Origin: an uncultured archaeon
Lineage (GTDB): Archaea > Altiarchaeota > Altiarchaeia > IMC4 > SCGC-AAA252-I15
Length of the DNA stretch: 64,000 nt
Assembly: GCA_964587725.1 (NCBI GenBank)
Contig: CAZPLO010000001.1
Span: 1-64,000, forward strand
Direction: 5' to 3'
Shown here: one piece after another, positions 5,076 through 56,245 of the stretch
How positions within the stretch are numbered: the stretch's first letter is position 1
Layout: each line of letters starts with the position of its first letter
Position numbers and translations under genes: made by a program
Notes under the pieces: generated by a model
What the model was told of the DNA's origin: nothing
Databases searched by the model: none
What the model saw: only the letters and a program-made list of their open reading frames with translations

Positions 5076-5078
5076 AAA

Positions 5079-5393: not shown

Positions 5394-5405
5394 AGCTACA
5401 GGCCC
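5394..5405 (-). repeat. 12-bp direct copy of the tRNA(CAT) 5' end
   Basis: AGCTACAGGCCC is identical to 5298-5309. Confidence 0.75.
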
Positions 5406-5555
5406 TTCTATGTGTTTGTGTTTCTTCCCAGCAGGTCGCTGGTGCATGTTTGTGGTTTCGTATTCAGAGGGGCTAAGCGAGCTTGCGAGCGCACGCCCCT
5501 CCCTGGCGTGAACCTACAGTGTAGGTTCAGGGTGTATTATTTAGTGGTTGGTGTT

Positions 5556-6877: not shown

Positions 6878-6912
6878 CGGTTAATATTAGGGGTGGACGG
6901 GGATAATAGTAT

Positions 6913-7212: not shown

Positions 7213-7592
7213 AGGGGATTACGTGGAAGCACGTCGCCTGGGACTTGATTGTGTTCGCGGCGGTGATAGTCAGCATCGCATCGGTGAGTATTGAAGTACT
7301 GTATGACCTGGATGAGGGTGAAACCATAATACTGCTTTTCATAGACGCGGTGGCGTTGGGGATATTCGCGGTGGATTTGTGGTTTCTCTGGCAGCATTAT
7401 ACGGGACCCTTCAAAGACTTCATATTCAGCAACTGGCTGGATTTCCTCAGCGCGATACCGGTGTTCAGGATAATCAGGGTGGCGCGGTTTGCGCGGCTGC
7501 TGAAGATGGCGCGACTCCGGAGACTGGGTAAACTCAAGAGGGTCAAGGAGGTTAAAGAAAAGGTAGGGTCTACTGGAAGTACGCCTGGGTGA
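7209..7592 (+). CDS. Stand-alone voltage-sensor-like (Ion_trans S1-S4) membrane protein
   Basis: S2 IFAVDL, S3 NWLDFLSAIP, S4 FRIIRVARFARLLKMARLRR; no pore helices. Confidence 0.8.
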   Translation: MKGITWKHVAWDLIVFAAVIVSIASVSIEVLYDLDEGETIILLFIDAVALGIFAVDLWFLWQHYTGPFKDFIFSNWLDFLSAIPVFRIIRVARFARLLKMARLRRLGKLKRVKEVKEKVGSTGSTPG

Positions 7593-36071: not shown

Positions 36072-38249
36072 ATGGATTTGAAGGACCTGCTGAAATCCAG
36101 TGTGTGGAAGCTGGGTGCGGTGGTCTTCGCCGTGTCCTTCGCGGCGAGGGCGGTGCTCGACTTCATGTTCCAGAGCCGCCTGGGATGGCATGCAGTCAAC
36201 CACGCGGAGTCCTGGCTGTATACCGGCGTCATGAAAGGCACCCATGTCACAGGCTACATGCTCCAAGACCCGACGGTGTGGCTTCTTCGCGGGGTGGGCG
36301 TTTTCTTCCCCGGCAACCTAGCACTGTATGGCGTGTTCTTAACCTCGGCGGCTTTGTCCGCCCTCACTGCCTCCCTCATACTCCTCCTGGCTTCGGAATT
36401 GTACGACAAGAAGACGGGGTTTATCGCAGGCATGGCATACGGGGGGATGGTGGAGCCCCTGGCTCTGTCGCTGTCGGGGTTCACCCACGACCACCTGCAG
36501 CTGCCGGTGATGGTGCTGCTGCTTTGGATGACAGTGAAGGCTGTTAAGGTCAAGGGCTGGATGCGGTACAGCCTGGTTGTCGCGTACGCGATCATAGTGT
36601 ATTGGGCGCGGTTCATCAACGAAGTCGTCTACGTCGCGGTCGGCGCATCCGCAGTGTATGTCGGATACGTTGTGCTTGAAAGATACTATGGGGGGAGGAA
36701 CGTACACGCCGCCTATATGACATTGGGTTTGGTGGCGTTGGCGGCCGCCGGTCAGTGGGGCCTCAACACGTACCTCGCATCCAAGCTCGAACTCCTCCCG
36801 CAGGGGAGGATGGGGAGCGTCGACGTGCTGCCCCTGAGCATGCTGACGTTCTGGCTCAGATACAACATGCTGTTGTTCCTCATGCCCTTCGGCGTAGCAG
36901 CCGCGTACAAAAGGAGGGACACTGTGGGGCTGACGCTTACGGCGGTCGGGTTTGTGGTGGCGACGGTGATGGACCGGGGTACGAGGATAAGCGACCTCGG
37001 CGTAGCGTTGTTGTTTTCTTACGCGGTCGTGGACTGGGGTGTGAAGGAGAAGGTCTTGGGGCTGGACAGGAGAAACAGGCTGTACCTGACCGCCGGTTCC
37101 GGGGTGCTTGCGTCCGCGTACGTCTACTTCAACACCCACCAGCCGCTGCATTACAACATCATATACCTTCTGGGGGGGGCAGTCCTACTCTTCACACTGT
37201 GGAGGGTCAATGGCGTGAAGGGCATGGTTGCCGCCGCTTCCGTTGTTGTTTTGGTGGGTGTAGCGGCCAACGCGGCGTACGTATACAATCTGGAGCCTAG
37301 GAGGATAGTGTCGGACACTGAATACCATGTCCTTGAATGGCTGCGCGGCAACAACGACGGAGGCATGGTGCTGACGGGGTGGGACCGCGGATACATGGTG
37401 GAGGTGGTGTCCGGGTTGGAAGCCGCTTCCACGCCGGGGAGGATACGGGCTGAAGTACACGACATGCTGTGGCAGCTGGACCGTCAGGCGGCAGCCAACC
37501 TCCGTAAAGCCGGCGTACGGTATGTGATGCTGACCAGCGAACACTTCAACGTGGTAAAGATGGGGGATGAGATGGCCTACCGGATAAGCGGGGGGTTAGT
37601 GTTCGCCCCAGAAAACCAGCCGCCGATGGAGTTCACCAACCGCCTCACAGTGTACAAGCTGAGACACGACACCGCACCCCGGTACTTCAGACTGTTGAAA
37701 AACGAGACGGACCCCTCCACTGGCGTGAAGGTGATGCTGTACGAGGTGGCTTCAGAACCGGCGGAGGGTTCGTTGGTCGGGGGCATCGCAGTCAACCACG
37801 GCTCTGAAAAAAACGCGTCCCTGGAGGCTGCAGCCTACGGCAGCAGGGAATACTCTGAGGTCTACGTGGAAACCTTCAAGTCGAACGAGGTGAAGGAGGT
37901 GGTGTATCCTGTGGGGAAGTGGATGCGGGAGTTCAACTGCAGTCTGGCGCCCGTGGACGAGTGGGGATACACCGGAACCATAACGTACCTGAACATGGGG
38001 GGAGCCCACACAGTTGACGCTAACGTTGTTTTAGTGGACGCGGGTTCAGGGGAGACTGTGGACTCCGCTCTCCTCAGGATTAGTTTCAGAGCAGGAGAAA
38101 AGAGGACAGTCCAGTACACCTTCAAACCCGAGGACCTGTCCAGGGAGTACCTAGTGGGCCACAACGTCATAGAAGGCGTCGACGTGTTGGAGAACGAGTC
38201 CACGCCCCCCGTCCTTGAGGGCGTGGGCGTGCTGGCTATGTTCTGCTAG
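36072..38249 (+). CDS. Multi-TM GT-C fold protein, AglB/STT3-like variant
   Basis: Many TMs, GFTHDH, VLTGWDRGYMV at the WWDYG position, extracellular C-terminal domain; SD AGGAGG before ATG 36072. Confidence 0.65.
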   Translation: MDLKDLLKSSVWKLGAVVFAVSFAARAVLDFMFQSRLGWHAVNHAESWLYTGVMKGTHVTGYMLQDPTVWLLRGVGVFFPGNLALYGVFLTSAALSALTASLILLLASELYDKKTGFIAGMAYGGMVEPLALSLSGFTHDHLQLPVMVLLLWMTVKAVKVKGWMRYSLVVAYAIIVYWARFINEVVYVAVGASAVYVGYVVLERYYGGRNVHAAYMTLGLVALAAAGQWGLNTYLASKLELLPQGRMGSVDVLPLSMLTFWLRYNMLLFLMPFGVAAAYKRRDTVGLTLTAVGFVVATVMDRGTRISDLGVALLFSYAVVDWGVKEKVLGLDRRNRLYLTAGSGVLASAYVYFNTHQPLHYNIIYLLGGAVLLFTLWRVNGVKGMVAAASVVVLVGVAANAAYVYNLEPRRIVSDTEYHVLEWLRGNNDGGMVLTGWDRGYMVEVVSGLEAASTPGRIRAEVHDMLWQLDRQAAANLRKAGVRYVMLTSEHFNVVKMGDEMAYRISGGLVFAPENQPPMEFTNRLTVYKLRHDTAPRYFRLLKNETDPSTGVKVMLYEVASEPAEGSLVGGIAVNHGSEKNASLEAAAYGSREYSEVYVETFKSNEVKEVVYPVGKWMREFNCSLAPVDEWGYTGTITYLNMGGAHTVDANVVLVDAGSGETVDSALLRISFRAGEKRTVQYTFKPEDLSREYLVGHNVIEGVDVLENESTPPVLEGVGVLAMFC

Positions 38250-39994
38250 GTAACCGGCGCCACCCCGCCGACGACGTTGCTGCCGGCCTGCCCCTGCGCG
38301 AACAACCAGTCGAACAGCGCCGGCAATGCCACGGCCAGTATGGCCACGAACCACACCATCAGCACGAAATCCAGCAATGCCGTGTATTTGCTGCCGCCGT
38401 CCACCATCTTTATCGAGTAAGCTGAAAAGGCCGCGTGTAGCAGCAGCACGATGAACAGGAGGTCCTGCACCAAAGGCACGTTTATTTCACCTATCGACGG
38501 GAGCAGGCCCTGAGTGAGGCTGCTAACCGACGGCGTCTGAGCTATCGCCGCGAAAGACTGCTTGAACGTGTTGTCTAGTATGCCGACCATCCGGAGTGTG
38601 GCGTAGGCTGAACCGGTGACCCCCAGCAGCGTCCCGTAGTATACGCCTTTGACGCTGGACGCCAGCTGAAGCCGCAGCTCCCTAAGGGACAGCAGCTGTA
38701 TGAAGTTGTCGCTGATTATCTGGCTCGCCTCCTCCGGGTCGCCTCCGAGGTTGATGACCTGTATGAATATGCTGCCGAACTTCTCTATCATGTTGCTGCC
38801 TGTCTCGCCGGCGAAGTACATCCACGACTGGAATTTGTCGCAACGCACCTTCAAACGCATGTAGAGTTTGTTGACCGCGTCGTTGAGGACCCCGAACTCG
38901 TGTATCCTGAGCGGCCCTATGGTACTGTATAAACTGCCGCCGCGGGCCGACAGTGAGCCGCCGAGGGAGCGGACGAACGCGGGGAAAGCCTGATCCTTGC
39001 GTATTACGGCGTTCTCCATCTGCTGGGACATGAACCCTATCACCGCCAGGGGGGAGGCGGAAATGGCCATCAGCACGGGAAACCAGGGGAGGGGTCTGAA
39101 TATTAGGAGGGGTACGCCCAAGACGAAGCAGGACGCTATTACGGGTATCAAAACCCGCCTCATTTTCTTATATTCTGGAGGCTTGATGGGGAGGCGGTGG
39201 GTTATGGGGTCGTGGGTTATGAAACTGTCTATGAACACAATCGACAGCAGATCTATGAAGAATAGTGCGAGTGCGCTGAGGCCGACGAGCATGTAGATGT
39301 TGTAGCCCATCACCAACGGCAACATAAAGGCGATGGCCATCATGAAGGATATGGCTATGGTGAGTGATACAAGGGCGTCCTGGACCAGGCTAAGTGTTTG
39401 GAGGCTCTGCTTGTACTCGGATGCAAAGTCCTCCATGACGGCGGACTGCTCCTTCCGGAGGAAGGCGTCGATGCGTTCACCGAAGTCGAAGGCCGCGCTC
39501 ATCCGGTCCAGGAAGTTGCCGAGAATCTTCGACGGCACAAGGGTGCTGAGTTTCCTGCACGTCCTCACCAGCCCCAGGTTCCAGTAGTCCGACAAATACG
39601 CGACCTTCTCCATCACCTTCGCAATCTCCCCGTATTCGACGCGCTGGGATGCTAGGCGGAACAGCTGCCGGCGTTTCACGTGCAGGGTTGAGAGGGCGCC
39701 GGCGTAGGTTATGAAGTAGTGTATGTTCTCGTGTATGTTCACCTTAATACGCTCTATCACGTAGTAGGGGTAGACGAAGATGGCGGAAACCCCGAGTATC
39801 ATTATTATCATCGGCGCCAGCAGCAAAACCATGGGGGGCACGCCCAGGTCGAAGGTGCCGCCGTAGAATACCACGAACAGTAGGCCGGAGATGAACAACA
39901 CCATGGTGACCGCCAGCACCGGTGCCACGAATTTCTTGAAGTAGTCGTCTACAGTGTTGTAGCCTGCTAGCCTGATTGCCTCCTCGAAGTCCAT
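38246..39994 (-). CDS. arlJ: Archaellum membrane platform protein ArlJ/FlaJ
   Basis: FITYAGALST, WNL.L..CR, FLDRMS, RKDQAFPAFVRSLG, W.YFAGETGS.MI, DGG; two T2SSF domains. Confidence 0.9.
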   Translation of the reverse strand: MDFEEAIRLAGYNTVDDYFKKFVAPVLAVTMVLFISGLLFVVFYGGTFDLGVPPMVLLLAPMIIMILGVSAIFVYPYYVIERIKVNIHENIHYFITYAGALSTLHVKRRQLFRLASQRVEYGEIAKVMEKVAYLSDYWNLGLVRTCRKLSTLVPSKILGNFLDRMSAAFDFGERIDAFLRKEQSAVMEDFASEYKQSLQTLSLVQDALVSLTIAISFMMAIAFMLPLVMGYNIYMLVGLSALALFFIDLLSIVFIDSFITHDPITHRLPIKPPEYKKMRRVLIPVIASCFVLGVPLLIFRPLPWFPVLMAISASPLAVIGFMSQQMENAVIRKDQAFPAFVRSLGGSLSARGGSLYSTIGPLRIHEFGVLNDAVNKLYMRLKVRCDKFQSWMYFAGETGSNMIEKFGSIFIQVINLGGDPEEASQIISDNFIQLLSLRELRLQLASSVKGVYYGTLLGVTGSAYATLRMVGILDNTFKQSFAAIAQTPSVSSLTQGLLPSIGEINVPLVQDLLFIVLLLHAAFSAYSIKMVDGGSKYTALLDFVLMVWFVAILAVALPALFDWLFAQGQAGSNVVGGVAPVT

Positions 39995-39995
39995 G

Positions 39996-41648
39996 TTACA
40001 CCGAGAATGGGAGACCCTCCTTGCCCTTGTAGTAGTAGGACTTTATTATCTCCCACACGTCGAAGTAGTTGAATATGCCCTCAGATATCATCTTGTTTAT
40101 GATTTTTGCCCTGTACTCGAGTTCATTGTATATTTCGCGCACGTCCTTGTAGCCGAGCATCCGGGCTATCTTCTCCTCCAGGATGTAACTGTTGTGGTAG
40201 CCGAGGAAGCCGAACTCGTCCGACGTCGGCACCCACTCGAACACGGCCGCGGTTCCGACCTTGCCGAGTTCGTCGTAGTATTTGATAAGCTCTGTGACGC
40301 TCAGGACACGGCGGACGAACTTCCCGTGAAGGTACACGGCCTGCTGGATTAAGACGACGTTGAGGTTGTCTATCGCAGATATGGGGACGTTGATTGGGTG
40401 GCCGGTCATACGCTGTATCATCTTGTGGGGGTCGCCGGCGTGGAAGGTGCTCATAACCGGGTGGCCGGTCTGCATCGCCTGGAACGCTATGTTGCCCTCT
40501 TTCTCACGTATCTCACCCACGATGATGTAGTTGGGCCTTGACCGGAGGGCCGCCACCAGCAGCGTCATCATGGTCACGTCCGTTTCCTTCCCGGACTCCC
40601 TAGTTACGAGGTGCTGCCACGCCGGATGCGGCATCGTTACCTCGGGTGTGTTTTCGACGCTGTAGACCTTAGCGTCCGGTTTGATGAATGCGCTGACAGC
40701 GTTCAACGTCGTCGTCTTCCCGGAGGCTGTTTCGCCGCAGATGAATATGCTCATCCCGTTCTCCAGGCACAGCCACATGTATGCGGCCATGTCCGCGGTC
40801 ATCGTGCGCCAGTTCACCAATTGGGTGATGCTGATGGGGACCTTGCTGAACTTCCGGATGGTGAAGCTGCTGCCCTCCAAACTTACTTCGCGACCGTAGA
40901 TGAAGTTGGCCCGGCTGCCATCCGGCATGATGGCGTCCACCACCGGCTGCGCCTCGCTAACCGGCCGCTCCACCCGCTCGCTGCTGTTGAAGACGTACTT
41001 GTCCAACTGCAGGTCTGTGTTGAATATGATGTTTGTGGCAACCATCTCGAAAATCTTGTGGATGGTATACACTCTCGCGACGCCTATGCAGTGTATGTCC
41101 TCTATGTAGGGGTCACGGAGCAGCGGCTCCAGTATGCCGTAGCCGACCCGTTCGCGGATGAGAAAGTACTTGATTTTCTCGTACTCCTGCTGGGTCATCC
41201 TGATTCTTCCGCCACCTCCTAACTGCGACATAATATTTTCTATGGCGCCTTTCTTCCTGCCGGACTCCAGCCTCTTACCCTCCACCTCCACCAAATCACC
41301 CATCAGCTTCACCAGTATGTCGCTGAGGTCCTCGGTGGTCTCGCTGGTGTCCATGGTGTGAGCTATCTTAATCAGCTGGTCGCTGATTTTGTTGAACATC
41401 TCCTGCTCATGCGGCATCAGCTGAGGCTCCACCGCAATGTACTGGGTCTCGTTCTCCCCGGGGCGGCGGAGGATGTGGATGAATATGGGGTCGCCGACGG
41501 GGTACATGATGTTGGGGAACTCCTCCCCCTTCAGACTCCGGTCCAGCTGCACGTAGAAGTCCGGCTTCTCCACGCTCTTGTTCTGCAGGTACTCCCGCAG
41601 GTGCGGGTTCCTCGCCTGCGCCTCCTGGAACTCCTTCTCGTCCGGCAT
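39996..41648 (-). CDS. arlI: Archaellum motor ATPase ArlI/FlaI
   Basis: NPHLREY, YPVGDPIFIHI, DPYIEDIHC.G, GETASGKTTTLNA, LRSRPNYIIVGEIR, NSYILEEKIA. Confidence 0.93.
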   Translation of the reverse strand: MPDEKEFQEAQARNPHLREYLQNKSVEKPDFYVQLDRSLKGEEFPNIMYPVGDPIFIHILRRPGENETQYIAVEPQLMPHEQEMFNKISDQLIKIAHTMDTSETTEDLSDILVKLMGDLVEVEGKRLESGRKKGAIENIMSQLGGGGRIRMTQQEYEKIKYFLIRERVGYGILEPLLRDPYIEDIHCIGVARVYTIHKIFEMVATNIIFNTDLQLDKYVFNSSERVERPVSEAQPVVDAIMPDGSRANFIYGREVSLEGSSFTIRKFSKVPISITQLVNWRTMTADMAAYMWLCLENGMSIFICGETASGKTTTLNAVSAFIKPDAKVYSVENTPEVTMPHPAWQHLVTRESGKETDVTMMTLLVAALRSRPNYIIVGEIREKEGNIAFQAMQTGHPVMSTFHAGDPHKMIQRMTGHPINVPISAIDNLNVVLIQQAVYLHGKFVRRVLSVTELIKYYDELGKVGTAAVFEWVPTSDEFGFLGYHNSYILEEKIARMLGYKDVREIYNELEYRAKIINKMISEGIFNYFDVWEIIKSYYYKGKEGLPFSV

Positions 41649-41649
41649 C

Positions 41650-42378
41650 CTAAGCCAAACCTCCTATGTCTATGATGAGGCCCTGGCCCGGCTCAACACG
41701 GAACGCAATCTGGGGAACAACCTGTATCTTGCTGCGCTTGAACCGGTTCACCGCCATGTACTTCTTGGTTTCCCCTCCCAGCTCCTTCATCCCGAACTCC
41801 AGGTATATGTCCGACACCGACCGGAAGAGCGTTAACAGGCTCTTGTTCAATTGGTCGGGGTCGACGGTCATCATCACAATCTTCCCCTTGTTGGTGAGTT
41901 TCTTGAAGAACTTAATGACCTCGAATGCTTTCTCGTCGCTGATGTTGCCCTGCACCAGCAGAAAGGATATGGTATCTATGATTATCACCGTCTTCTCGAA
42001 TAGTTTCTTGGCGGACAGCAGCCTTTCAAGAAAGTCTTTCCGCAGTTTTCCTCCGCCTATGAACGGGAACATGGGTATGAACAGGAGGCGCTCGTCTATC
42101 ACGTATTCGTCGACCACGTACTGGAGGGAGTCCATCTGCTCCAGGAACTCCTTCGTCGACAGTTCCGCGCTGATGTAGGTGGCGGTTGCGCCGTTAACCA
42201 GCGACGAATACAGGAGACGCTGGACCAGCAGGCTCTTGCCCATCCCGTCCTTCCCCTCTATAAGCATCAGGGAACCGTAGGGAAGGGCGCCGCCTAACTT
42301 GGTGTGCAGCATGTCCCTTTTAATCCGCATGCTCAGGAACTGGTTGTCGGATTCCTGCTCGTCTGGTTCCTCAGCCAT
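41650..42378 (-). CDS. arlH: Archaellum KaiC-like regulator ArlH/FlaH
   Basis: RDMLHTKLGGALPYGSLMLIEG.DGMGKS..QRL.Y, FLEQM.SL.Y, FRVEPG.G. Confidence 0.92.
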   Translation of the reverse strand: MAEEPDEQESDNQFLSMRIKRDMLHTKLGGALPYGSLMLIEGKDGMGKSLLVQRLLYSSLVNGATATYISAELSTKEFLEQMDSLQYVVDEYVIDERLLFIPMFPFIGGGKLRKDFLERLLSAKKLFEKTVIIIDTISFLLVQGNISDEKAFEVIKFFKKLTNKGKIVMMTVDPDQLNKSLLTLFRSVSDIYLEFGMKELGGETKKYMAVNRFKRSKIQVVPQIAFRVEPGQGLIIDIGGLA

Positions 42379-42409: not shown

Positions 42410-42745
42410 TTATTCCGATTCAGCGTTCTCCTGCGCCTCCTGCTGTCCCTGTTCCCTGACACCCGCCTTCTCCAGCAGGTTTTCCGACATGGCTATGATC
42501 CTCTCCAGATTGTCTTCGATGCTGGTGAGCCGCTCCTGATTCTCGTGAGTGAGTTCAAGGGTTTTTGAGACTGTAACGTCGAGTTCGTCGGTTTTGGACT
42601 CCAGCGTGTGTATGCGGTCGTTTATCTGCTCCTTTGCTTCGTTGAACTCCTTGACCTGTTCGGCAATAATTTCCAGTCTGACGGTGGTGACACTCTTCTT
42701 CCGCCTGAATAACCCCCCCAACTTGTTCAGCAATCCGTCCAACAT
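42410..42745 (-). CDS. Coiled-coil protein, ArlC/FlaC-like
   Basis: RIHTLESK..ELD.TV...ENQERLTSIEDNLERIIAMSE resembles FlaC; directly upstream of arlH. Confidence 0.55.
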   Translation of the reverse strand: MLDGLLNKLGGLFRRKKSVTTVRLEIIAEQVKEFNEAKEQINDRIHTLESKTDELDVTVSKTLELTHENQERLTSIEDNLERIIAMSENLLEKAGVREQGQQEAQENAESE

Positions 42746-42793
42746 AGACCCGGGACACCCAAGAGTACTTACGTTTAAGCGTATAAAACGGCT

Positions 42794-43519
42794 TCAGCGG
42801 GGGCATACCAGCGAGTACCCGCGTTCCAGCTGGGTCTCGCATTCCGCCACCTTCATAGGGTTCATGAACGACCTGCACAGGCTCTCGTTGTTGAGGTTGA
42901 ACGCCACGCACATGATGCATTTGTCGTGTATCGCCATCAAGTCGATGTCCTCGCCGGGAACACGCTTGCATATCTCTGTGTCGTTGAGTTTCATCCCCAC
43001 CGACCCGTAGCAGTTGTATGTTGCCTTCTGCGTGGACAGTTTGTCGCATAAGGTGACGTTGGCTGTGCTCAACGCGAGGGAGAGGAAGCAGCGGTCTCGC
43101 TCCGCCGGGTCGGTTTTTTTATCGCAGAGTTTGACTGTCTGGAAGGTGGTGGTGTAATAGACTGCCACCGCCACCACGAGAATCAACAGCGCCACAACCG
43201 CCACCACAAACCATTTGGTGAAGTTTATCCGCTCCAGGATGTGTATTTTCCCGCGTTTCTCCTCCACCGTGCGATGGTACCCTGGGACGTGGAGGGTCTC
43301 CTTCGCCAGCACCTCCTTCGTCCTCTCCAGGCCGACGTAGTCGATGAAAACGTTTTTGATTATCCTGTTGAGGACCAGCTTCAGCTGCTCGTCCTTCAGC
43401 TCGTCCTCCGAGACGCCGGTTTTCTTGACCGCCTGGTCTACCTTCTGAACTCCATCGGGACCCTCGTAGAGTACGAACGCCTTCTTCCGGAGGTCCTCTA
43501 TCTTCGGGTTCATATACAT
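42794..43519 (-). CDS. Bitopic protein with cytoplasmic N-domain, TM and extracellular Cys repeats
   Basis: TM WFVVAVVALLILVVAVAVYY; RDRCFLSLA..LCDKL, NCY..V..D.EIC. Confidence 0.78.
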   Translation of the reverse strand: MYMNPKIEDLRKKAFVLYEGPDGVQKVDQAVKKTGVSEDELKDEQLKLVLNRIIKNVFIDYVGLERTKEVLAKETLHVPGYHRTVEEKRGKIHILERINFTKWFVVAVVALLILVVAVAVYYTTTFQTVKLCDKKTDPAERDRCFLSLALSTANVTLCDKLSTQKATYNCYGSVGMKLNDTEICKRVPGEDIDLMAIHDKCIMCVAFNLNNESLCRSFMNPMKVAECETQLERGYSLVCPR

Positions 43520-46594: not shown

Positions 46595-48334
46595 ATGGTC
46601 GAGATCAGGACTAAAGCGGACGCGCTGGTCGACGCGGTGAGGAAGTCCGAGGAGGGGGTGGGACTCGACCGCCTCGCAAAGGAAGCCGGCGTCGACGCAG
46701 ACACAGCGGAACGCTGGGTCAACCAGATGGAGGACATGCTGGACATAGACTACAGCATAAACCTGTTCAAGAAACCCACCGTCCGGATGAAAAAAGCCGA
46801 AGTCAAACGCACACCCAACATATTCCTAGACAGCGAAGGTGAGACCATCGAATCCTACGACATAACCGTCGACAAGGTCCCCGCGCAGATAATCATCCAG
46901 GACCGGAAAGGCGACTTCATGCGCACCTACTACGTTGGAATGCCTGTTTTGGGAGAGGGAACCCACACCCTACTCAACAACGTGGTTAAGGAACTCGCGG
47001 TGAAGGTGTCCACCCGCACCGAAGACATATCAGACCCCCGGAAGGCGTCCGAGATAAAAGGCAAGTTCAGGATGGAGGCGCGGCAGAGGATACTTGACGA
47101 GATGCCGGTTACGGAGGAGCAGGCCGACATACTCTCCGGGCTGATAATGCACAGGGTGTACGGCCTCGACGACCTGGAGATAATCCTGGGAGACGACCTC
47201 ATAGAGGAACTGTGCATAAACGCCGGCGACCTCCCCATCATAGTGTATCACAGGAAGTACGGGTGGCTGAAGACCAACGTCGTCGTGCCGGAGGAGAAGG
47301 ACATATTCGACTACGCCTCCCTCATCGGCCGTAAGGTGGGTAAGGACATCACCAACTTGAACCCGCTGATGGACGCCCGCCTCATCACCGGCGACCGCGT
47401 CGCGGCGTCGCTGTTCCCCATCTCCTCACAGGGGAATACGATAACCATACGGAAGTTCGCGCGGGAGCCGTGGACGATAGTGGACTTCATGAGCCCGGAA
47501 TACAACACCATCTCTTCCGAGATAGCGGCGTTCCTGTGGCTGTGCATACAATACGAGTTGAGCGTCATGGTCGCCGGCGGCACAGCCTCCGGGAAGACGA
47601 GCATGCTCAACAGTTTGTGCGCGTTCATACCGCCGGGGCAGAGGGTGGTAAGCATAGAGGACACCCGCGAGATACAACTGCCGTCGCACCTGGGATTGAA
47701 CTGGATACAGCTGACCACGCGGGAGCCGAACCCCGACGGCCTCGGAGGCGTCACCATGCTGGATTTGATTGTGTCTTCGCTGAGGATGCGACCGGACCGC
47801 GTGATAGTGGGCGAGATACGGAACCGGGACGAGGCGGAGGTATTGTTCGAGGCCATGCACACCGGCCACTCAGTGTATTCGACGATGCACGCGGACACCG
47901 CCATGCACGTCCGCCGGCGGGTGACGGAGCCGCCGATACAGATTCCGGAGGCCGAATTGGAGGCACTGCAGGTGATACTTACACAGTACCGTGACCGCCT
48001 GCACGGGATACGCCGCACATTCGAGATAGCGGAGGTCATACCTGGGACGAGGGAGCGGCGGCTGGAGCTGAAGTACCTTTACAGGTGGAGGATCAAGACC
48101 GACACCTTCGAACAGGTCGACAGAAGCAACCGCGTATACAACGACCTCAACCTGTACACCGGCATGAGCGTGAAGGAGATAGAGCAGGACCTGCTGGAAA
48201 AAAAGCAGGTGCTGGAGTGGCTGCTGGAGAACAAAGTCAACCGGATGGACGAGATAGGGCAGGTCATGAACATGTACTACACGGACAAGGACGAACTCAT
48301 AAACGCGGTCCAAGCCAAGAAGAAGATAGAATGA
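46595..48334 (+). CDS. Type IV pilus assembly ATPase
   Basis: TIRKF, GGTASGKTS, IEDTREI, LRMRPDRVIVGEIR, TGHSVYSTMHA. Confidence 0.93.
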   Translation: MVEIRTKADALVDAVRKSEEGVGLDRLAKEAGVDADTAERWVNQMEDMLDIDYSINLFKKPTVRMKKAEVKRTPNIFLDSEGETIESYDITVDKVPAQIIIQDRKGDFMRTYYVGMPVLGEGTHTLLNNVVKELAVKVSTRTEDISDPRKASEIKGKFRMEARQRILDEMPVTEEQADILSGLIMHRVYGLDDLEIILGDDLIEELCINAGDLPIIVYHRKYGWLKTNVVVPEEKDIFDYASLIGRKVGKDITNLNPLMDARLITGDRVAASLFPISSQGNTITIRKFAREPWTIVDFMSPEYNTISSEIAAFLWLCIQYELSVMVAGGTASGKTSMLNSLCAFIPPGQRVVSIEDTREIQLPSHLGLNWIQLTTREPNPDGLGGVTMLDLIVSSLRMRPDRVIVGEIRNRDEAEVLFEAMHTGHSVYSTMHADTAMHVRRRVTEPPIQIPEAELEALQVILTQYRDRLHGIRRTFEIAEVIPGTRERRLELKYLYRWRIKTDTFEQVDRSNRVYNDLNLYTGMSVKEIEQDLLEKKQVLEWLLENKVNRMDEIGQVMNMYYTDKDELINAVQAKKKIE

Positions 48335-49218: not shown

Positions 49219-49535
49219 GCCTCCGGCTTCCCCATCAGGTTGGGGCTGCGGGGTTTCTTGTAGCCTCTGTCGTGGACGCGGTAGGATTCCTCGTTCAAGC
49301 CCAGTATGCTCACCAGCTCCGAACGCGCCACCAGAAACCTGCTGTGCCCGAGGAACGTGGACAGGTAGTCGGTGGTCAGACCGTTCAGCAGGCTCTCTTT
49401 TTCGACATCGCTCATGTGCTCGACGTCCATTATGCCTAGTTTCTTCATCTCGTTAACCAGGACCAATCCCCCGGACTTGCCGGACCACTTGAACATGAAC
49501 TCCAGCAGCTGTCTGCCCACCTTGGCCATCTTCAC
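49215..49535 (-). CDS. Small hypothetical protein coupled to a KaiC-like ATPase
   Basis: 4-nt overlap with 49532-50239; resembles the N-domain of 42794-43519. Confidence 0.7.
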   Translation of the reverse strand: MKMAKVGRQLLEFMFKWSGKSGGLVLVNEMKKLGIMDVEHMSDVEKESLLNGLTTDYLSTFLGHSRFLVARSELVSILGLNEESYRVHDRGYKKPRSPNLMGKPEA

Positions 49536-50239
49536 TTATACAGTACCTTCAATCCCTCCGACGATATGTCGTAGTCTACGAAGTTTTTGACGTGATTTGA
49601 GCCGCGCATCTTATGGACCTTCACCTGCCGCCCCCACTCCTCCCTGATTCGGAACAACGTGACGGAGTCGGCTAGGAAGTCCTCCATGCCGAAACGGCTG
49701 GTGTCGTTCGACGAATACGGTATCTCGGTGGTGAACACGGTGGTGATGCCCATCTTCTTCAGCGACACCATGAAACGGAACAGCTCCGCCCTGAATACTT
49801 TCTCGTCCTCGTACGCGATAGCCAGCGGCACCACGCTGTCCAACCCCAGGCGGACTGCATCGCTGTAGTTCAACTGTATGAACTCCAGCAGGTTCTCGAA
49901 GCGGAGCGGACTCTCCGGGCTCTCCACCTCGTCGGCGGTGTTCAACGCGTTGACACGTAGCGAGGACAGGTCGAACATGGTGAGCATGTCATCGTCCACG
50001 TCCTCCAGGTCGAGGCCGACCGTTTTGCTGTCCCTTACTATGTGGTCCCTCATCTCCTCCAAGGTAATGTAAACTCCCTTCTGCCCGTACTTCACCGCCC
50101 CGTTGTAGAGAAAGTAGAGGGTGAACAGGGTCTTCCCGGAGCCGCTGCACCCGCACAGCAGGTTTATGCTGTGGGGTATAAAGCCGCCCCCCAAAAGGTT
50201 GTCGTAGCCTTCAATGCCGGTCTTGATTCGCTCATCCAT
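49532..50239 (-). CDS. Single-domain KaiC/RAD55-family ATPase
   Basis: RIKTGIEGYDNLLGGG, GCSGSGKT, ITLEE, LDSV, KMRGSNH. Confidence 0.92.
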   Translation of the reverse strand: MDERIKTGIEGYDNLLGGGFIPHSINLLCGCSGSGKTLFTLYFLYNGAVKYGQKGVYITLEEMRDHIVRDSKTVGLDLEDVDDDMLTMFDLSSLRVNALNTADEVESPESPLRFENLLEFIQLNYSDAVRLGLDSVVPLAIAYEDEKVFRAELFRFMVSLKKMGITTVFTTEIPYSSNDTSRFGMEDFLADSVTLFRIREEWGRQVKVHKMRGSNHVKNFVDYDISSEGLKVLYK

Positions 50240-50309: not shown

Positions 50310-51290
50310 ATGGAACGGACCTACATCCTCGCCTCCCGGATTTTCCCATCCAGGGTTAATAGAAGCATCAGCGACCTCCTCAGGTACTGCGGAAGCACCA
50401 TGACGGCCGAGACCTGGCTGGGGAGGGCCGCCATAATCAGCATCATAATATTCGTTTTAACGGCGGCGGTGTTTTTGTTCACCGTCCAAAACCCCCTGAT
50501 GGCCCTGTTCCTGGTATTGGTGGGGCTCCTGATATTCCACGTGGCAAACTACATGCTCCTGTATTTGAAGGCGGAGAGCAGGGCTAGGGCTGTGGAACGC
50601 GTTCTCCCCAATCTCCTGCAGCTGATAGCCGCCAACCTCAACTCCGGGATGACGCCTTTCCAGGCTGTGAAGGAGGCGTCTAGGATAGAGTTCGGAATCC
50701 TGAAGGAGGAGATAGACACCGCCATCGCATTGTCGCTGGGGACCATGCCTTTCCCGGACGCGCTGATGTACATGACGACGAAGGTGAAATCCGAAACCTT
50801 CAGGAACGTGATGGAGTTGTTCGTGGAGGGGATGAGGACGGGGGGGCCCCTGGCCACCCTGCTGAACGACATAGCAGACGACATAATAGAGAACCTGGAC
50901 CTGCGGCGGGAGATTGTCACGCGGAGCAAAAGCTACATACTGTTCATATCCTTCATCGTGGTGGTGGGGGCTCCGCTGCTGTCGGCGGTGTCGATACACT
51001 TCATCCGCACCATCACCAGCATAACAAGCACCGTCGCCTTGGACGTGCCGGAGGTGGCTAACGTGGGCGGCATAACATTCGGGCAGCTGAGCCTCACCGA
51101 AAGCTTCCTCACCACCGTGTCGGTGGCCAACATACTGGTGACCGCGTTGATTGCGAGCTGGCTGATTGCCATAATAGCGGAGGGCAGGGACAAGTACATG
51201 TTCAAGTACGCCATAATGCTGGTGCCGTTCTCCATGGTCATGTTCTACTCCCTCGACTACCTGATAGCGCTGGTATTGACCGTAGAATGA
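50310..51290 (+). CDS. Second TadC/T2SSF pilus platform protein
   Basis: VERVLPNLLQLIAANLNSGMTPFQA..EFG.L..E, GG.LA.LL. Confidence 0.88.
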   Translation: MERTYILASRIFPSRVNRSISDLLRYCGSTMTAETWLGRAAIISIIIFVLTAAVFLFTVQNPLMALFLVLVGLLIFHVANYMLLYLKAESRARAVERVLPNLLQLIAANLNSGMTPFQAVKEASRIEFGILKEEIDTAIALSLGTMPFPDALMYMTTKVKSETFRNVMELFVEGMRTGGPLATLLNDIADDIIENLDLRREIVTRSKSYILFISFIVVVGAPLLSAVSIHFIRTITSITSTVALDVPEVANVGGITFGQLSLTESFLTTVSVANILVTALIASWLIAIIAEGRDKYMFKYAIMLVPFSMVMFYSLDYLIALVLTVE

Positions 51291-52390
51291 AAATAGCGTT
51301 GATCTGCGAGTTCTTCCCGGAGTCCAGCGGCCGGGAGATGCGAGGGGGCGTCGAAGCCCGGACGTACTTCATGGGCAGGGGCCTGGCGAAACGACACGAC
51401 GTCACCGTATACAGCGTCAAAGAACCGGGGTTTACGAACACTTCCATTGACGGCATGGACGTGGTGCGGGTGGGGCCGGAGATGAAGTACACGCAGGCGT
51501 CGTCGCTGCCAGACAGAATCCGTTTCATGCGAGACGCCGCCGAGCAGGTGAAAGGCTTTGACGTGGTGGACGGAGCCAGCGTCATAGGCTACCCGGCCGC
51601 GTGGTGGAGCAAATGCCCCGTGAAGACTGTGACATACCATGACGTGTGGGTCGGACGCTGGATTCGAAACATCGGGTGGAAGGGCGCGTTCGGCGAACTC
51701 ATGGAACGATACGTGCTGTCGCGCCGGTGGAATCTGGTGACGGCGGTGAGCGAGTACACGAAACAGAATCTCGTGAAACACGGCGTAGACGCTGAAAAGA
51801 TTACGGTGGCGCCGAACGGCATAGACGTCCGCGAATACGCGGGGGTGAAGGCGGAGAAATTCGACAAACCCACCGTGTGCACGGTAGCGAGGCTGGTGAA
51901 GTACAAGCGGGTCGGCGACCTCATTCAAGCGGCTGCGAATATGAAGGAGGACGTACCCGGCCTTCAGGTGAAGGTTGTGGGGACGGGGCCGGAGAGGAAA
52001 ACCCTGGAGCGTCTCGCACGTGACCTCGGAGTAGATGCGGATTTCATGGGGTACGTGCCAAAACACTCCAGGGTGTTGGAGACAGTGAAGGCGTCGCACG
52101 CGTTCTGCTTGCCCAGCGCGGTGGAAGGCTACGGCATCACCGTCGTGGAGGCGATGGCGTTGGATGTCCCGTACGTGGCGTCCGACATACCCGCCGTCAG
52201 GGAGGCGACGCGGAACGGTTCAGGGGGCCTGCTGTATGAGACAGGCAACATAGGGAAGCTTGCAGACGGACTGAAGACTGTGCTGCAGGGAGGCGTTGAA
52301 GGCGGCGTGGACTTCATCGGCGAATACGAGTGGAGCCGTACGGTGGAGAAGGTGGAGGAGGCGTATGAAAGGGCATCTGACATTAAGTGA
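51287..52390 (+). CDS. Glycosyltransferase family 4
   Basis: GGVE, PNGID, ARLVKYKR, PSAVEGYGITVVEAMA. Confidence 0.92.
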   Translation: MKIALICEFFPESSGREMRGGVEARTYFMGRGLAKRHDVTVYSVKEPGFTNTSIDGMDVVRVGPEMKYTQASSLPDRIRFMRDAAEQVKGFDVVDGASVIGYPAAWWSKCPVKTVTYHDVWVGRWIRNIGWKGAFGELMERYVLSRRWNLVTAVSEYTKQNLVKHGVDAEKITVAPNGIDVREYAGVKAEKFDKPTVCTVARLVKYKRVGDLIQAAANMKEDVPGLQVKVVGTGPERKTLERLARDLGVDADFMGYVPKHSRVLETVKASHAFCLPSAVEGYGITVVEAMALDVPYVASDIPAVREATRNGSGGLLYETGNIGKLADGLKTVLQGGVEGGVDFIGEYEWSRTVEKVEEAYERASDIK

Positions 52391-53918
52391 CCGGCACGGG
52401 CTGGCAGTCATACTGCTGGTTGCTCTGGCGCTGATGCTCCAGCACATAGGCGGCGCCTTCGGGGGATACCACGGATTCAACGAAGCATTCTACACCCGGC
52501 TGGCCGGGAGCATAGCAGAAAACCCCCTGTCGTATCCGCGGCTGCCCGAAGGCAGAGCAGACTACAACATACCCCCGCTCCTCGCCTACCTCCTCGGATA
52601 CGCGTTCATACTGTTCGGGGAAGGGGAGGCGGTTGCGAGGATGGTTCCCGTAGCATTCAGCCTCCTCGCGGTCGCATCAACATACCTCATCGGCAGGAGA
52701 CTGTATGGGGGGCGGACGGGGCTGGCGGCGGCCGCCATACTTTCCGTGACGCCCATGCACTTCATCGTAGGCAGGAACGTGCAGACGGACATGGTGTTCG
52801 TGGCATTGGGGTTGACCGCAGTATACCTGTATCTCCGAGGGTCGGTGAAGGCCGCCGGCGCAGTATTGGGGCTGGGATTCCTCGCCAAACAGCCGGCGGC
52901 ACTGTATTACGTGGGGTTGCTGGCGTACGAGGTTTGGCGGACGCACGACTCGGAAGACCGCCGTGGAACCTTGAAAAAGTTCGCAGTGTTCACTGCGTGC
53001 GCCGCTGCAGTGGCAGCACCGTATATAATATACAATCTCGTCAACGACCCCGGAGGGTTCCTGGGCGGGCAGACACGCGACGTCATGCTCGCCTCGACCG
53101 GCGGCCCGGGATTGTTCGCGCTAGCCTCCGAAGCATACAATGGATTGTCTCCGCTGACTACATTGGCATTCATCGCAGGCGTCATACTCGTGCTGCGTAA
53201 ACGTGAACGCGACCTCACACTCATCTACACGGCATTGTTTGCGGTGTTCTTCCTGTTCTACAACTTCCACTCATACTATGCGCTGCCGCTGGCGGCGTTC
53301 GCTGCATTGGCGGCGGCACGGGCATGCTCAGGGATACCGTCTAAGAAACTCCGCCTAGCAGCCATCTTACTACTCTACTGCGCTGGACTCTTCAACACCG
53401 CGCTGATGATGTGCGCCAACAAATACGGGTACGAAGAGTTCAGGAGGCTGCCCCGGCACATCCCCGAACAGGATGCTGTGCTTGTTGCTTCAGACGTCAT
53501 AGAACGCAGTTACCTGCCGGTGCTCCAATACTATGCGGACAAGGAGGTGGTTGCAGCCGGCGGATACGACGTCGAAGCAGGTGAAATGTATCCGCTGGAC
53601 TACTCGAAACCCACGTATGCGCTGATACACCGGAGCGAAGTGGACCTGGGGCGGCTGACCGAACAGCACCGGCAGAGACTAGTTGACAACGGCGTCTACG
53701 CGGACGTGCACGCGCTAGCCCTGGGCGGCGTGGTATTCCACCGGCCGCCCATAAACCCCCACTTCTTCACCAACGGCCCACTACAGGTGGAGTGGCTGCT
53801 TCCCCCAACATCATACGGGGTCGTGAAGGTGGGTGAGGTGCCGGAGGTGTTCGCCGTGAAACTGCGGCCCAGCGAACGCCTGTACAGAAGCGACAGAGGA
53901 GGCTACAGCATCAGATAG
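52365..53918 (+). CDS. ArnT/PMT-like GT-C membrane glycosyltransferase
   Basis: NEAFY, PPLL.Y, FGEGEAVAR, QTD, LGFLAKQ; multiple TMs. Confidence 0.85.
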   Translation: MKGHLTLSDRHGLAVILLVALALMLQHIGGAFGGYHGFNEAFYTRLAGSIAENPLSYPRLPEGRADYNIPPLLAYLLGYAFILFGEGEAVARMVPVAFSLLAVASTYLIGRRLYGGRTGLAAAAILSVTPMHFIVGRNVQTDMVFVALGLTAVYLYLRGSVKAAGAVLGLGFLAKQPAALYYVGLLAYEVWRTHDSEDRRGTLKKFAVFTACAAAVAAPYIIYNLVNDPGGFLGGQTRDVMLASTGGPGLFALASEAYNGLSPLTTLAFIAGVILVLRKRERDLTLIYTALFAVFFLFYNFHSYYALPLAAFAALAAARACSGIPSKKLRLAAILLLYCAGLFNTALMMCANKYGYEEFRRLPRHIPEQDAVLVASDVIERSYLPVLQYYADKEVVAAGGYDVEAGEMYPLDYSKPTYALIHRSEVDLGRLTEQHRQRLVDNGVYADVHALALGGVVFHRPPINPHFFTNGPLQVEWLLPPTSYGVVKVGEVPEVFAVKLRPSERLYRSDRGGYSIR

Positions 53919-53964
53919 TGTTTTTAACCGTCTCTTTGAATACATTACATCAAGGTGATAGACT

Positions 53965-54663
53965 ATGGTTGAGCGCGTTCAAACGGGTATACCGGGGCTC
54001 GACGAGCTCCTCGGCGGCGGATTCATCAGGAGACGGCATGTTGTCATATGCGGCGGCCCGGGAACCGGAAAGACCACGCTGGCATACGAGTTCCTGTACC
54101 GGGGGGCCGAACAATACGGTGAGAAAGGGTTGTTCGTGTCATTGGAGCAGAGCCCCGAACGGGTGGTGGATGGGGCGAAGGCGTTGTTCAGCAGCTGGGA
54201 CTGGGACAGACACCTGGACTCTAACATAGTGGTGACGAGGGTGCAGATAGACGACTTCACCCACCTCCAGGACATCATAGGAAACTACGTCAAGGAACAC
54301 GGTGTGAAGCGGGTGGCGTTGGACAGCCTAACCCTGCTGCGGCTGTATTTCAGGGGCGAAGACGCGTACCGGAACAATCTGTATGAGCTGCTCACGTTCC
54401 TCGGAGACCTCGACTGCACCACCCTGCTGACGCTGGAGAAGGCGATGAACCGACGGTCCGACGCCCAATACGACATGGAGGAGTTCGTAGCAGACGGCGT
54501 AATCAACATGTATCTGGTTCCGAAGGAGCGGGACCGTCTGAGGGTATTGGAGATTGTGAAGATGAGGGACACCGACCACAGCACCCGCCTTAGCCCGTTC
54601 AAGATAACACCGGACGGACTGATGATTTCCCCTGACGCGCAGATGTTCGGAGACATCGAGTGA
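53965..54663 (+). CDS. Single-domain KaiC/RAD55-family ATPase
   Basis: RVQTGIPGLDELLGGG, GGPGTGKT, SLEQ, LDSL, EEFVADG, KMRDTDH. Confidence 0.93.
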   Translation: MVERVQTGIPGLDELLGGGFIRRRHVVICGGPGTGKTTLAYEFLYRGAEQYGEKGLFVSLEQSPERVVDGAKALFSSWDWDRHLDSNIVVTRVQIDDFTHLQDIIGNYVKEHGVKRVALDSLTLLRLYFRGEDAYRNNLYELLTFLGDLDCTTLLTLEKAMNRRSDAQYDMEEFVADGVINMYLVPKERDRLRVLEIVKMRDTDHSTRLSPFKITPDGLMISPDAQMFGDIE

Positions 54664-55547
54664 AGATGGACAAGGCATCCCGGGTGTACTCCAGCCTGCT
54701 CGCCGGCGAAACAGCATACCTTGCTAAGGTGAACCCGCAGCTGGCTGCGAAGACGCTGGAGGAGAAGGCGGAGGCGCTGAAGAAGGCCGGCGTACAGTAT
54801 ACTGTAGAAGGCGGTCTGAAGATAACCGAGGCACCCGAAAACTCCGGGGAGCTGCTGTATCAGACCATACTCGACTTGGCAGCACCCTATGAGAAACAGT
54901 ACGGGGTGAACAAGCTCTGGAACCCGCTGAAGACCGTGATAGTGAAGGTGTTCCAGAAGAACCGGGACGTGGTCCGGGAGACGGGCATGGAGGTTCCCGT
55001 CGCAAAGTACGAGATAGAGTACATGATACTGGAGACGCTGTTCGGCTTCCAGGGCACCGACTTCCGGAAGAAGAGGTGGATAAACGGGGCCGTGCTCGTG
55101 ACAAACCACGAAATCGTGCTGCCGGAGGACGGCGGCGCAGAACACATTCCCTTGCAGGCCGTCGCCACCGTCGGCCGCGAAATATACGTGGGCTACGAGC
55201 ACGAGATGACCAAGGGGATAGTACGGGCCATAGACTACCAGGTGAAGGAGTCCGGGATGTCCTGTGCGGTGCTGCTGGCGAAGGGGGAGTTGATGAAGGA
55301 GTTCATGAAGGTCGCGTCCGTCATGAGGGCGGAGTATCGGAGGCTGAACCCCACGGAGGAGAGGATACTGCTCGCATTATACGATGAGACGCCGGTTGAA
55401 CAGCTGGCGGGAAAGACAGGTGTGAAGGGGGTCGACGTGACGGCCGCCTTCAAGCGGCTGATGGAGCTCCGGTACACGGACGGGAAAGGCCACCTCACGT
55501 CGTATGGCATTAACGCTTCAATGGAGTTGAAACAGAGAGGTAGATGA
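54660..55547 (+). CDS. CheF-like (DUF439) protein with unrecognised N-terminal domain
   Basis: W.NG.VLVTN..IVL...GG..HIPL..V..VGR (CheF PH-like) and L..TEERILLALY...L....G.....V...F.RL.EL...LT..G.N (CheF C-terminal domain). Confidence 0.7.
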   Translation: MKMDKASRVYSSLLAGETAYLAKVNPQLAAKTLEEKAEALKKAGVQYTVEGGLKITEAPENSGELLYQTILDLAAPYEKQYGVNKLWNPLKTVIVKVFQKNRDVVRETGMEVPVAKYEIEYMILETLFGFQGTDFRKKRWINGAVLVTNHEIVLPEDGGAEHIPLQAVATVGREIYVGYEHEMTKGIVRAIDYQVKESGMSCAVLLAKGELMKEFMKVASVMRAEYRRLNPTEERILLALYDETPVEQLAGKTGVKGVDVTAAFKRLMELRYTDGKGHLTSYGINASMELKQRGR

Positions 55548-56245
55548 AGATGACGGTTGATTTAAGGAGGAGTGTTGTTGTGAACTTTAAGACGTACGAG
55601 CAGGCCACCGGCGCCAAGGCAGTGGCGTTGGCGAAAGTATGCGACGAGGTGGCGCGGGAGCTCGGCGCCAACATCGTGGTTACTGTACAGGCAGTGGACT
55701 TGAAGGCCGTGGCTGACGCCGTCGGCATACCAGTGTTCGCACAGCACATCGACCCCGTGAGGTACGGCAGCAACACCGGGTGGGTGCTGGCCGAAGCCGT
55801 TAAGGAGGCCGGCGCGGTCGGGACGCTGATTAACCACAGCGAACACAAGCTGCCGCTGGAGGAAATCAGGAAACGGATTGAACGGGCCCGTGAAATAGGT
55901 CTGACGACAATCGTATGCTCCGGCAAGGACAGCAACGAGGAGACAATCGACGAAACCAAAGCTATTGCGGCGTTGAAGCCCGACTTCGTGGCCGCTGAAC
56001 CCCCGGACCTCATCGGCGGAGACGTTTCAGTGACCACACGGCCGGAGCTGGTGACGGGTGTCGTGGATGCCGTGAACGAAGTGGACTCCGGAGTCGGCGT
56101 GTTGACGGGGGCGGGGGTGAAGACGGGAGACGACGTCCGGGATGCACTGAAGCTCGGCACACTCGGCGTGCTGCTCGCCTCCGGGGTTACGAAGGCGAAG
56201 GACCCGGCGGCTGCGCTGAAGAACCTGTGCAGGGGGCTGGAATAA
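55544..56245 (+). CDS. tpiA: Triosephosphate isomerase (archaeal type)
   Basis: VNFKTY, AQH.D, LINHSE, EPPDLIG, GAGV, LLASG. Confidence 0.96.
   Translation: MKMTVDLRRSVVVNFKTYEQATGAKAVALAKVCDEVARELGANIVVTVQAVDLKAVADAVGIPVFAQHIDPVRYGSNTGWVLAEAVKEAGAVGTLINHSEHKLPLEEIRKRIERAREIGLTTIVCSGKDSNEETIDETKAIAALKPDFVAAEPPDLIGGDVSVTTRPELVTGVVDAVNEVDSGVGVLTGAGVKTGDDVRDALKLGTLGVLLASGVTKAKDPAAALKNLCRGLE

Follow-up and report, generated by a model that had tools for sequence, protein, structure and literature searches.

Archaeal KaiC-like ATPases have reportedly been proposed as signal transduction hubs, by Makarova, Galperin and Koonin in mBio in 2017, and to our knowledge the partners of these ATPases are mostly unknown. 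We likewise know of CheF, until now, only as the adaptor linking phosphorylated CheY (CheY-P) to the archaellum of chemotactic archaea. In the portions of the published papers used here, KaiC families were described as associated with type IV pili, one of which was predicted to act with a second, helical component of the DEATH-like type, and CheF was treated solely as the interface between chemotaxis and the archaellum (PMC4858521); its input, CheY-P, binds the dimeric C-terminal domain (CTD), its PH domains have been proposed to dock on ArlCDE (PMC9126983), and arlCDE typically coincides with cheF (PMC13705601). Here we describe two adjacent genes, coding for a KaiC-like ATPase and for a protein partly made of CheF-type domains (hereafter the adaptor), in a window of 64,000 nucleotides (nt) from an uncultured archaeon of the Altiarchaeota (GenBank assembly GCA_964587725.1, contig CAZPLO010000001.1, positions 1 to 64,000). 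A prediction made earlier from the letters of this window (the original prediction) had taken the pair for a candidate CheY-independent switch of a surface motor. The best explanation, to which we give a probability of about 0.6, is a conserved two-gene signalling module that couples the translation of a catalytically intact KaiC-like ATPase of one domain to that of a dedicated adaptor of CheF stock, which would read the state of the KaiC; its directly supported part comprises the gene coupling, the co-occurrence, the domain architecture, the CheF homology and the absence of a Che system.

As in the known archaeal KaiC signalling modules (ArlH; CirA; the KaiC of arCOG01174 with its DEATH-like partner), a single-domain KaiC was accompanied at this locus by a small partner gene dedicated to it, type IV filament genes lay nearby, and the genome showed a large expansion of KaiC genes. 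The partner was here a CheF-derived protein with a PH-like domain and a winged helix-turn-helix (wHTH), a type not named in the part of PMC4858521 drawn on, and the KaiC differed from both ArlH and the KaiC of the adjacent pilus operon (49532-50239), to which it was 24 and 29% identical, respectively. It obtained 22.1 bits with the NCBIfam ArlH model (cut-off 215), in contrast with the 225.8 bits of the true ArlH of the window (41650-42378), next to which FlaI (716.3 bits) and ArlJ (E 4.8e-128) were also recognized by NCBIfam. The match to the Pfam family KaiC (PF06745) was clear (192.3 bits, E 1e-56, cut-off 26.6), and the best NCBIfam models were of the KaiC type (KaiC_arch_3, E 1.4e-42). 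Having one domain and 232 amino acids (aa), the protein remained well below the scores of circadian double-domain KaiC (149.6 vs. 408 bits for NF006799 and 105 vs. 546 bits for TIGR02655).

The Walker A motif GGPGTGKT (residues 30-37), E61 and D120, to which we assign the roles that we take them to have in KaiC proteins, were invariant among eight KaiC orthologs; since these elements are intact, the ATPase looks catalytically competent. Common to the orthologs, but absent from the neighbouring paralog of the pilus operon, was also a tail formed by roughly the 13 C-terminal aa. The source genome (1.56 Mb) contained 25 matches to KaiC domains, 23 of them above the Pfam cut-off, in about 21 places, as against three receiver domains, which fits a KaiC-centred signalling repertoire. 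A first look at the relatives with the KaiC query gave 10-25 candidates, with 2-3 in family f8 and 5-9 in a few others.

Adaptor relatives were few: nine proteins by word-indexed search, and 34 representatives (E ≤ 1e-3) among 1.84 billion proteins, the full-length ones being mostly 279-334 aa long and the remainder shorter fragments. A family alignment of 35 sequences (A1) was used for modelling and for profile searches. The AlphaFold2 model obtained from it, with a predicted local distance difference test score (pLDDT) of 93.4 and a predicted template modelling score of 0.90, displayed three parts. The N-terminal part, residues 1-110, was formed by five helices and a beta-hairpin (pLDDT 91.2 when modelled alone) and carried a conserved FE..YG....W motif, with conserved columns at E78, G82 and W87. 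This domain gave no Foldseek match at E ≤ 1e-3 (best E 0.48) and, among 48,161 chains, no Z ≥ 8 and no PH match, the best Z of 6.7 being at noise level; language-model features of the Atlas gave no usable match for it. Residues 111-228 folded into seven strands and a C-terminal helix, forming a PH/PTB-like domain that reached Z values of about 11 against many PH/PTB domains (11.1 for CheF, 7ovp_A, ranked ninth in Foldseek with E 9.3e-4). Its conservation was strongest in strand 5 (TVGREIY, with R173 invariant) and strand 6 (RAIDY, with D192 invariant). The same seven-strand sandwich with a C-terminal helix cap is present in eukaryotic-type PH/PTB adaptors (Z 10-11 to TAPP1 PH, EPS8 PTB and Fe65 PTB2), a likeness at the level of the fold only (6-16% identity). 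The last part, residues 229-295, was a winged helix that superposed on ZitR over 67 residues (Z 10.5, root-mean-square deviation [rmsd] 1.3 Å, 25% identity).

Homology to CheF was detected by several approaches, all of which draw on A1 and are not fully independent. As a single sequence, the adaptor matched the Pfam family CheF-arch (PF04283) over residues 137-217 with 17.7 bits (E 0.0032), not reaching the cut-off of 25, and a winged-helix family over residues 246-293, also below threshold (E 0.0016). Within the family, 14 of the 35 members matched CheF-arch at E ≤ 0.1 (best 5e-5) and none of them above the Pfam cut-off; 25 matched wHTH-PRTase_assc. A relative at locus L037 scored 23.6 bits with CheF-arch. 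With the A1 profile, CheF ranked first among the sequences of the PDB (7ovp_A, E 6.3e-6; CTD of Methanococcus maripaludis CheF, 7od9_C, E 8.8e-5), followed by ZitR (E 0.0048). True CheF genes were taken from the phylum containing Thermococcus, where CheF was found in 36 of 133 genomes, and the A1 hidden Markov model matched the CheF open reading frame (ORF) in 29 of 30 such loci. One CheF of 308 aa, with a Pfam score of 151.8 bits of its own and a HEAT-repeat gene upstream, scored 57.7 bits across the PH domain and the CTD. Profile-profile alignment (hhalign) of A1 with 15 CheFs covered the whole CTD (probability 94%, E 1.4e-7; 82 columns, 212-293 vs. 250-336), and with the 308-aa CheF alone it extended over 153 collinear columns (probability 90.7%, E 1.3e-6; 134-292 vs. 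140-304), spanning PH domain, linker helix and CTD. An Atlas language-model search with residues 111-295 returned CheF-family clusters in the first three positions (0.93-0.95), and PF04283 in 13 of 30 hits. Judged by these comparisons, the PH/PTB-like domain and the CTD are distantly but significantly homologous to CheF. The fourth Atlas cluster (score 0.93), of 192-aa archaeal proteins that were commonest in Thermoplasmatota, resembled the PH domain plus CTD, and 35% of its members carried wHTH-PRTase_assc; this cluster may be related to the adaptors and represent an even shorter version of them.

The sub-threshold Pfam match fell on the stretch of the CheF-arch model corresponding to the first PH domain, and the two PH domains of CheF resemble each other; the collinearity of the retained domain with the CTD suggests that it corresponds to the second one. 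Both CheF (PF04283, arCOG02394; 7OVP, 7OD9) and the adaptor are archaeal cytoplasmic adaptors without an enzymatic motif, in which a PH-like domain, a long helix and a winged-helix-like CTD follow one another, and their CTDs share the order of three helices, wing strand and terminal helix, which in CheF are a5-a7, b16 and a8. In contrast with the two N-terminal PH-like domains of CheF (described in the part of PMC9126983 used here), the adaptor has one, preceded by the unrelated helical domain, its wing is five residues shorter according to hhalign, and its gene adjoins those of KaiC and triosephosphate isomerase (tpiA) instead of belonging to a che/arl operon. The anatomy anticipated by the original prediction, one CheF-type PH-like segment and a CheF CTD behind an unrelated N-terminus, was thus borne out by hhalign, by the PDB profile search and by the model, and the profile comparison that it had proposed placed CheF first.

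The pairing of the two genes was conserved. The adaptor was present in 11 of 40 relatives examined, and the KaiC gene lay directly upstream of it in nine of the 11 loci, the remaining two being truncated by contig ends; for one of these (G008) the adjacency was seen on another contig. Across the 61 genomes of the phylum, the adaptor family occurred in 12, of which 11 had a KaiC ortholog with at least 60% identity, vs. none of the 49 genomes without the adaptor, which gave at best a single match of 43%; in the twelfth genome the adaptor was located at a contig end. KaiC orthologs were 61-83% identical and adaptors 26-47%, a difference that one would expect between an enzyme and its adaptor, and the pairing persisted while the flanking genes changed. 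The KaiC-adaptor pairing is therefore real, and the conservation in relatives that had been put forward as a check was found. A search of contigs with the KaiC alignment yielded, among the matches listed, homologs of other phyla with 24-35% identity and four short Walker-box fragments, and no A1-like neighbour appeared beside the KaiC homologs of other phyla among the matches listed (hmmsearch, E ≤ 10).

The two genes were also tightly spaced. The original prediction had described a KaiC ORF overlapping a 295-aa protein by the four nucleotides GTGA; both ORFs and the GTGA are present, and the overlap itself depends on choosing the longest ORF, which starts at the GTG at 54660. At the junction, which reads ...GAG TGA AG ATG GAC..., the second start lies 2 nt past the KaiC stop. 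In the eight loci with a readable junction the adaptor began at an ATG 1-10 nt past the KaiC stop, the copy of the adaptor in the protein collection (P0001) had 293 aa, and the alignments of homologs began at residue 3 of the 295-aa query. For these reasons the ATG at 54666 is the likelier start; the spacer is then 2 nt long, and the two genes remain tightly coupled in translation.

Chemotaxis genes were searched for in the whole source genome (48 contigs, 92.15% complete), with positive controls detected in each search. No CheW, no MCP signalling domain and no CheA dimerisation domain appeared, unlike in the hosts of CheF, and no canonical CheF was found, the only CheF-arch match in the genome being the sub-threshold one of the adaptor. 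The lack of che genes noticed at first in the window thus extended to the genome. Two stand-alone receiver proteins of 123 aa were encoded in it; a receiver (CheY-like) input to the adaptor is unlikely. The genes of these receivers (L058 and L059, on contigs C19 and C13) were each part of a three-gene operon, one with a DUF835 protein and a PAS-GAF-PAS protein and the other with a PAS-HisKA kinase and an MgtC/DUF4010 membrane protein.

From the analogy with CheF and the strict linkage to KaiC, the adaptor is probably a dedicated partner of its KaiC, to which it may bind physically. It would contact the KaiC ring, read its nucleotide or autophosphorylation state in the way that CheF reads CheY-P, and pass this state onward by protein-protein contact. 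The adaptor has kept one PH/PTB-like domain and the CheF-type CTD, which may dimerise as it does in CheF, and the family-specific helical domain takes the place of the first PH domain of CheF. The face formed by strands 5 and 6 of the PH/PTB-like domain is a candidate docking site, and the ortholog-specific C-terminal tail of KaiC a candidate ligand. Strand 5 is the canonical peptide-binding groove, or edge, of PTB domains, which makes the tail as ligand a testable guess. As downstream target, DNA comes into question as well as the archaellum or pilus machinery, whose genes lie close to the pair in some genera.

Several findings weighed against a dedicated KaiC-adaptor module. One genome (G013) had an adaptor paralog (contig C1) between leuA and the gene of a RIO-type kinase, without a KaiC neighbour. 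In a divergent clade from metagenome contigs, a KaiC gene accompanied the adaptor in one of three loci, in divergent orientation, and the other two, on very short contigs, had UPF0047 or DHHA1 genes upstream. No KaiC-adaptor fusion was found among proteins of 153-585 aa or of 586-2000 aa, which is weak evidence. The proposals for docking site and tail were derived from conservation patterns. Furthermore, the CTD superposed on DNA-binding domains of the MarR family over 67-68 residues with Z values of 10.0-10.5 (rmsd 1.2-1.7 Å, 16-25% identity).

The last of these points leads to another explanation, possible although somewhat unlikely, according to which the adaptor is a KaiC-controlled transcription factor: the winged helix would contact DNA in dimeric form, the KaiC signal would enter through the PH-like and N-terminal domains, and the output would be gene expression. 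KaiC-like proteins offer precedents in CirA/CsmR (PMC13286277) and in the regulation of gas vesicles (PMC4858521), as far as the parts of these papers used here describe them. Weak matches to helix-turn-helix (HTH) families of Pfam were obtained as well (MarR_2 in two of the 35 sequences, and HTH_24, HTH_27 and HTH_IclR in one each), but no member of the adaptor family reached the Pfam cut-off of any HTH family, and the best match of the CTD profile was CheF and not ZitR, with the E values given above. The position of R266, occupied by K or R in all 35 sequences, speaks for this explanation; it aligned, however, with an arginine in ten of 15 CheFs (lysine in three, glutamic acid in two), and we know of no report of DNA binding by CheF. 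Compared with MarR-family regulators (ZitR/AdcR, PDB 5YI1 and 5JLS), the adaptor shared the winged-helix fold but not the architecture of the dimerisation helices; its winged helix was preceded by the PH-like and the novel domains, its wing was short, and the surface that would read DNA was neutral. In the 35 sequences, the mean net charge was +0.5 for the whole CTD and +0.1 (range -3 to +5) for recognition helix plus wing, and the exposed positions 259 and 269 were D or E in 60 and 51% of cases, respectively. This neutral CTD stands between the acidic CTDs of CheF (mean -2.3) and what is expected of a DNA-binding domain; a protein-protein output of the adaptor is favoured.

DNA also figures in the idea that the pair belongs to a repair or recombination module, the KaiC-like protein acting as an ATPase paralogous to RadA together with a DNA-binding partner and nucleases. 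The NCBIfam models of RadA, RadB and DnaB matched the KaiC weakly (E 2e-7 to 1e-5), but this is the generic signal of the RecA fold, and the KaiC models scored more than 100 bits higher. In genus g8 a NurA-like gene (NurA, E 1.5e-6) overlapped the stop of the adaptor, yet the NurA-like ortholog of the source genome was unlinked, on contig C7, and a DUF460 gene two genes downstream of the pair in the window lay on the opposite strand and within a housekeeping synteny block. Such a module is very improbable. The g8 nuclease genes (L038:8807-9820 and L037:8882-9874, both on the minus strand) followed in the order KaiC-adaptor-NurA with an overlap of 4 nt; NurA was considered as a part of the module and rejected in view of its unlinked ortholog.

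The motor switch of the original prediction remained to be weighed against the two-gene signalling module. On that view the archaellum C-ring (ArlCDE), ArlH/I or the type IV pilus machinery would serve as docking partner of the adaptor, and the behaviour of the motor would follow from the state of KaiC, without CheY. The CheF homology is real, and the known partners of CheF are ArlCDE (PMC9126983 and PMC13705601, in the parts used here). The source genome encoded an ArlCDE fusion, ArlF/G, archaellins and ArlHIJ in spite of lacking a Che system; the fusion (525 aa; FlaC plus three ArlD/E domains) was found on contig C26 with ArlF/G and archaellin. As for the arl neighbourhood that had been claimed for the pair, the genes of ArlH, ArlI and ArlJ were confirmed in the window at a distance of 11.6 kb, but the ORF taken for arlC-like (42555-43049, minus strand) matched no family of Pfam or NCBIfam, FlaC_arch appearing nearby only with E 0.5.

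Three genera (g1, g2 and g4) had the pair either co-directional with a pilus platform gene and 0.05-6 kb past it, or 2.3 kb from arlH. This proximity to arlHIJ or pilus genes is confined to one syntenic block, with the conserved order T2SSE...KaiC2-T2SSF-(GT4)-PMT-KaiC-adaptor-tpiA-DUF460-purF-argJ in G001, G012, G013 and G016. In G020 (L127, contig C136), the pilus operon and the PMT gene were missing, and GT4-KaiC-adaptor-tpiA adjoined arlH-arlI-arlJ in a back-to-back arrangement, with 2.3 kb between the pair and arlH; by this comparison, the pilus operon behaves as an insertion or deletion inside a conserved block. Because the block also includes the housekeeping genes tpiA, purF and argJ, its synteny says little about a link to the motor. 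The loci of genus g8 (G015 and G019; L037 and L038) had neither a pilus ATPase nor a platform gene in the 20 kb examined, a methyltransferase gene preceding the pair and a NurA-like gene followed by an AMP-phosphorylase-like gene succeeding it.

The distribution of motor genes was compared with that of the pair. ArlD/E was detected in seven of the 61 genomes of the phylum and, by genus, in some member of four of the five pair-bearing genera vs. one of 26 others, a comparison in which kin are not independent. At the level of genomes, however, only five of the 12 with the pair had ArlD/E (G000, G012, G016, G022 and G027) and seven did not (G001, G008, G013, G015, G017, G019 and G020), and ArlD/E was found without the pair in G004 and G024; within genus g4, G013 had the pair without ArlD/E and G004 the reverse. 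These are metagenome-assembled genomes 57-92% complete, so that such gene absences are soft. Five of the seven ArlD/E-negative genomes were tested for ArlI, which exceeded the cut-off in G001, G013 and G020 but not in G008 and G015, both of genus g8. Besides, the KaiC paralogs of the pilus operon and of the archaellin operon on contig C30 are better placed as regulators. None of these findings speaks positively for a dependence of the pair on archaellum or pilus, and a CheY-independent motor switch is unlikely. Given ArlD/E in so few of the pair-bearing genomes, the two tested g8 genomes without ArlI and the restriction of the proximity to one block, the surface-motor output of the original prediction was not supported. 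Its full form, a CheF-derived adaptor rewired to a KaiC input instead of CheY-P and delivering the state to an archaellum or pilus motor in a phylum with archaella and numerous type IV pili but without a chemotaxis system, is quite doubtful; if true, it would represent a CheY-independent motor switch driven by an ATPase or phospho-timer, and would give the KaiC network of archaea its first defined output adaptor. On contig C30 (L122, G000:C30:3000-14025), at about 2453-8293, the archaellin genes were followed by genes for a 577-aa fusion of KaiC domain and coiled coil, a 796-aa SMC-like coiled-coil protein and a KaiC_arch_3 protein of 233 aa, an array that constitutes a second KaiC link to the archaellum in the source genome.

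The features of the locus are collected in Table 1. A TATA-like A/T-rich box (53921-27) and the sequence GGTGA (53954-58), ending 6 nt ahead of the ATG of the KaiC gene, suggest that the pair may have its own promoter. The sequencing runs listed comprised four DNA runs from a single study and no RNA run. On the other side, the ATG of tpiA overlapped the stop of the adaptor gene by the 4 nt ATGA, which suggests that translation of a gene of central glycolysis is coupled to that of a signalling pair. The tpiA gene adjoined the adaptor gene in the loci of family f1 only, with gaps of about 15-50 nt in the other genomes, and not in genus g8; it is a neighbour outside the module that is probably co-transcribed with the pair. 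The type IV pilus operon of the window comprised T2SSE (46595-48334), the KaiC paralog and T2SSF.

Table 1. Coordinates of the KaiC-adaptor pair and surrounding features in the 64,000-nt window.
Feature	Coordinates	Strand	Basis
Single-domain KaiC-like ATPase gene, 232 aa	53965..54663	+	ORF list; Pfam PF06745
CheF-derived adaptor gene, 293 aa from ATG 54666	54666..55547	+	Likelier start by ortholog comparison; 295 aa if GTG 54660
Adaptor N-terminal family-specific domain, aa 1-110	54660..54989	+	Models, conserved columns
Adaptor PH/PTB-like domain, aa 111-228	54990..55343	+	Foldseek, fold Z, hhalign
Adaptor CheF-type winged-helix C-terminal domain, aa 229-295, and stop codon	55344..55547	+	hhalign, PDB profile search
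Putative promoter and ribosome-binding region of the pair	53921..53958	+	Read from sequence
Triosephosphate isomerase gene (tpiA)	55544..56245	+	Pfam TIM, E 6e-35
Co-directional upstream genes: T2SSF platform 50310-51290, GT4 glycosyltransferase 51287-52390, PMT_2 glycosyltransferase to 53918	50310..53918	+	Pfam
Archaellum motor genes arlJ, arlI and arlH (context), at 11.6 kb on the upstream side of the pair	38246..42378	-	NCBIfam

No CheF-like partner of KaiC was found described in the literature searched, and the 2017 KaiC-hub paper or the arCOG supplements may list the family. With 34 representatives among 1.84 billion proteins and presence in 12 of 61 genomes of one phylum the family is rare, and its importance is therefore conceptual rather than broad. 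In this family the building blocks of CheF, a PH-like domain and a winged-helix tail, are put to use again away from chemotaxis and in association with one specific KaiC ortholog. This bears on the origin of CheF itself: CheY may have taken over a generic adaptor with PH and wHTH domains, or KaiC may have taken over a CheF. Being formed by small soluble proteins, the pair would also be suited to probing how an archaeal KaiC transmits its state.

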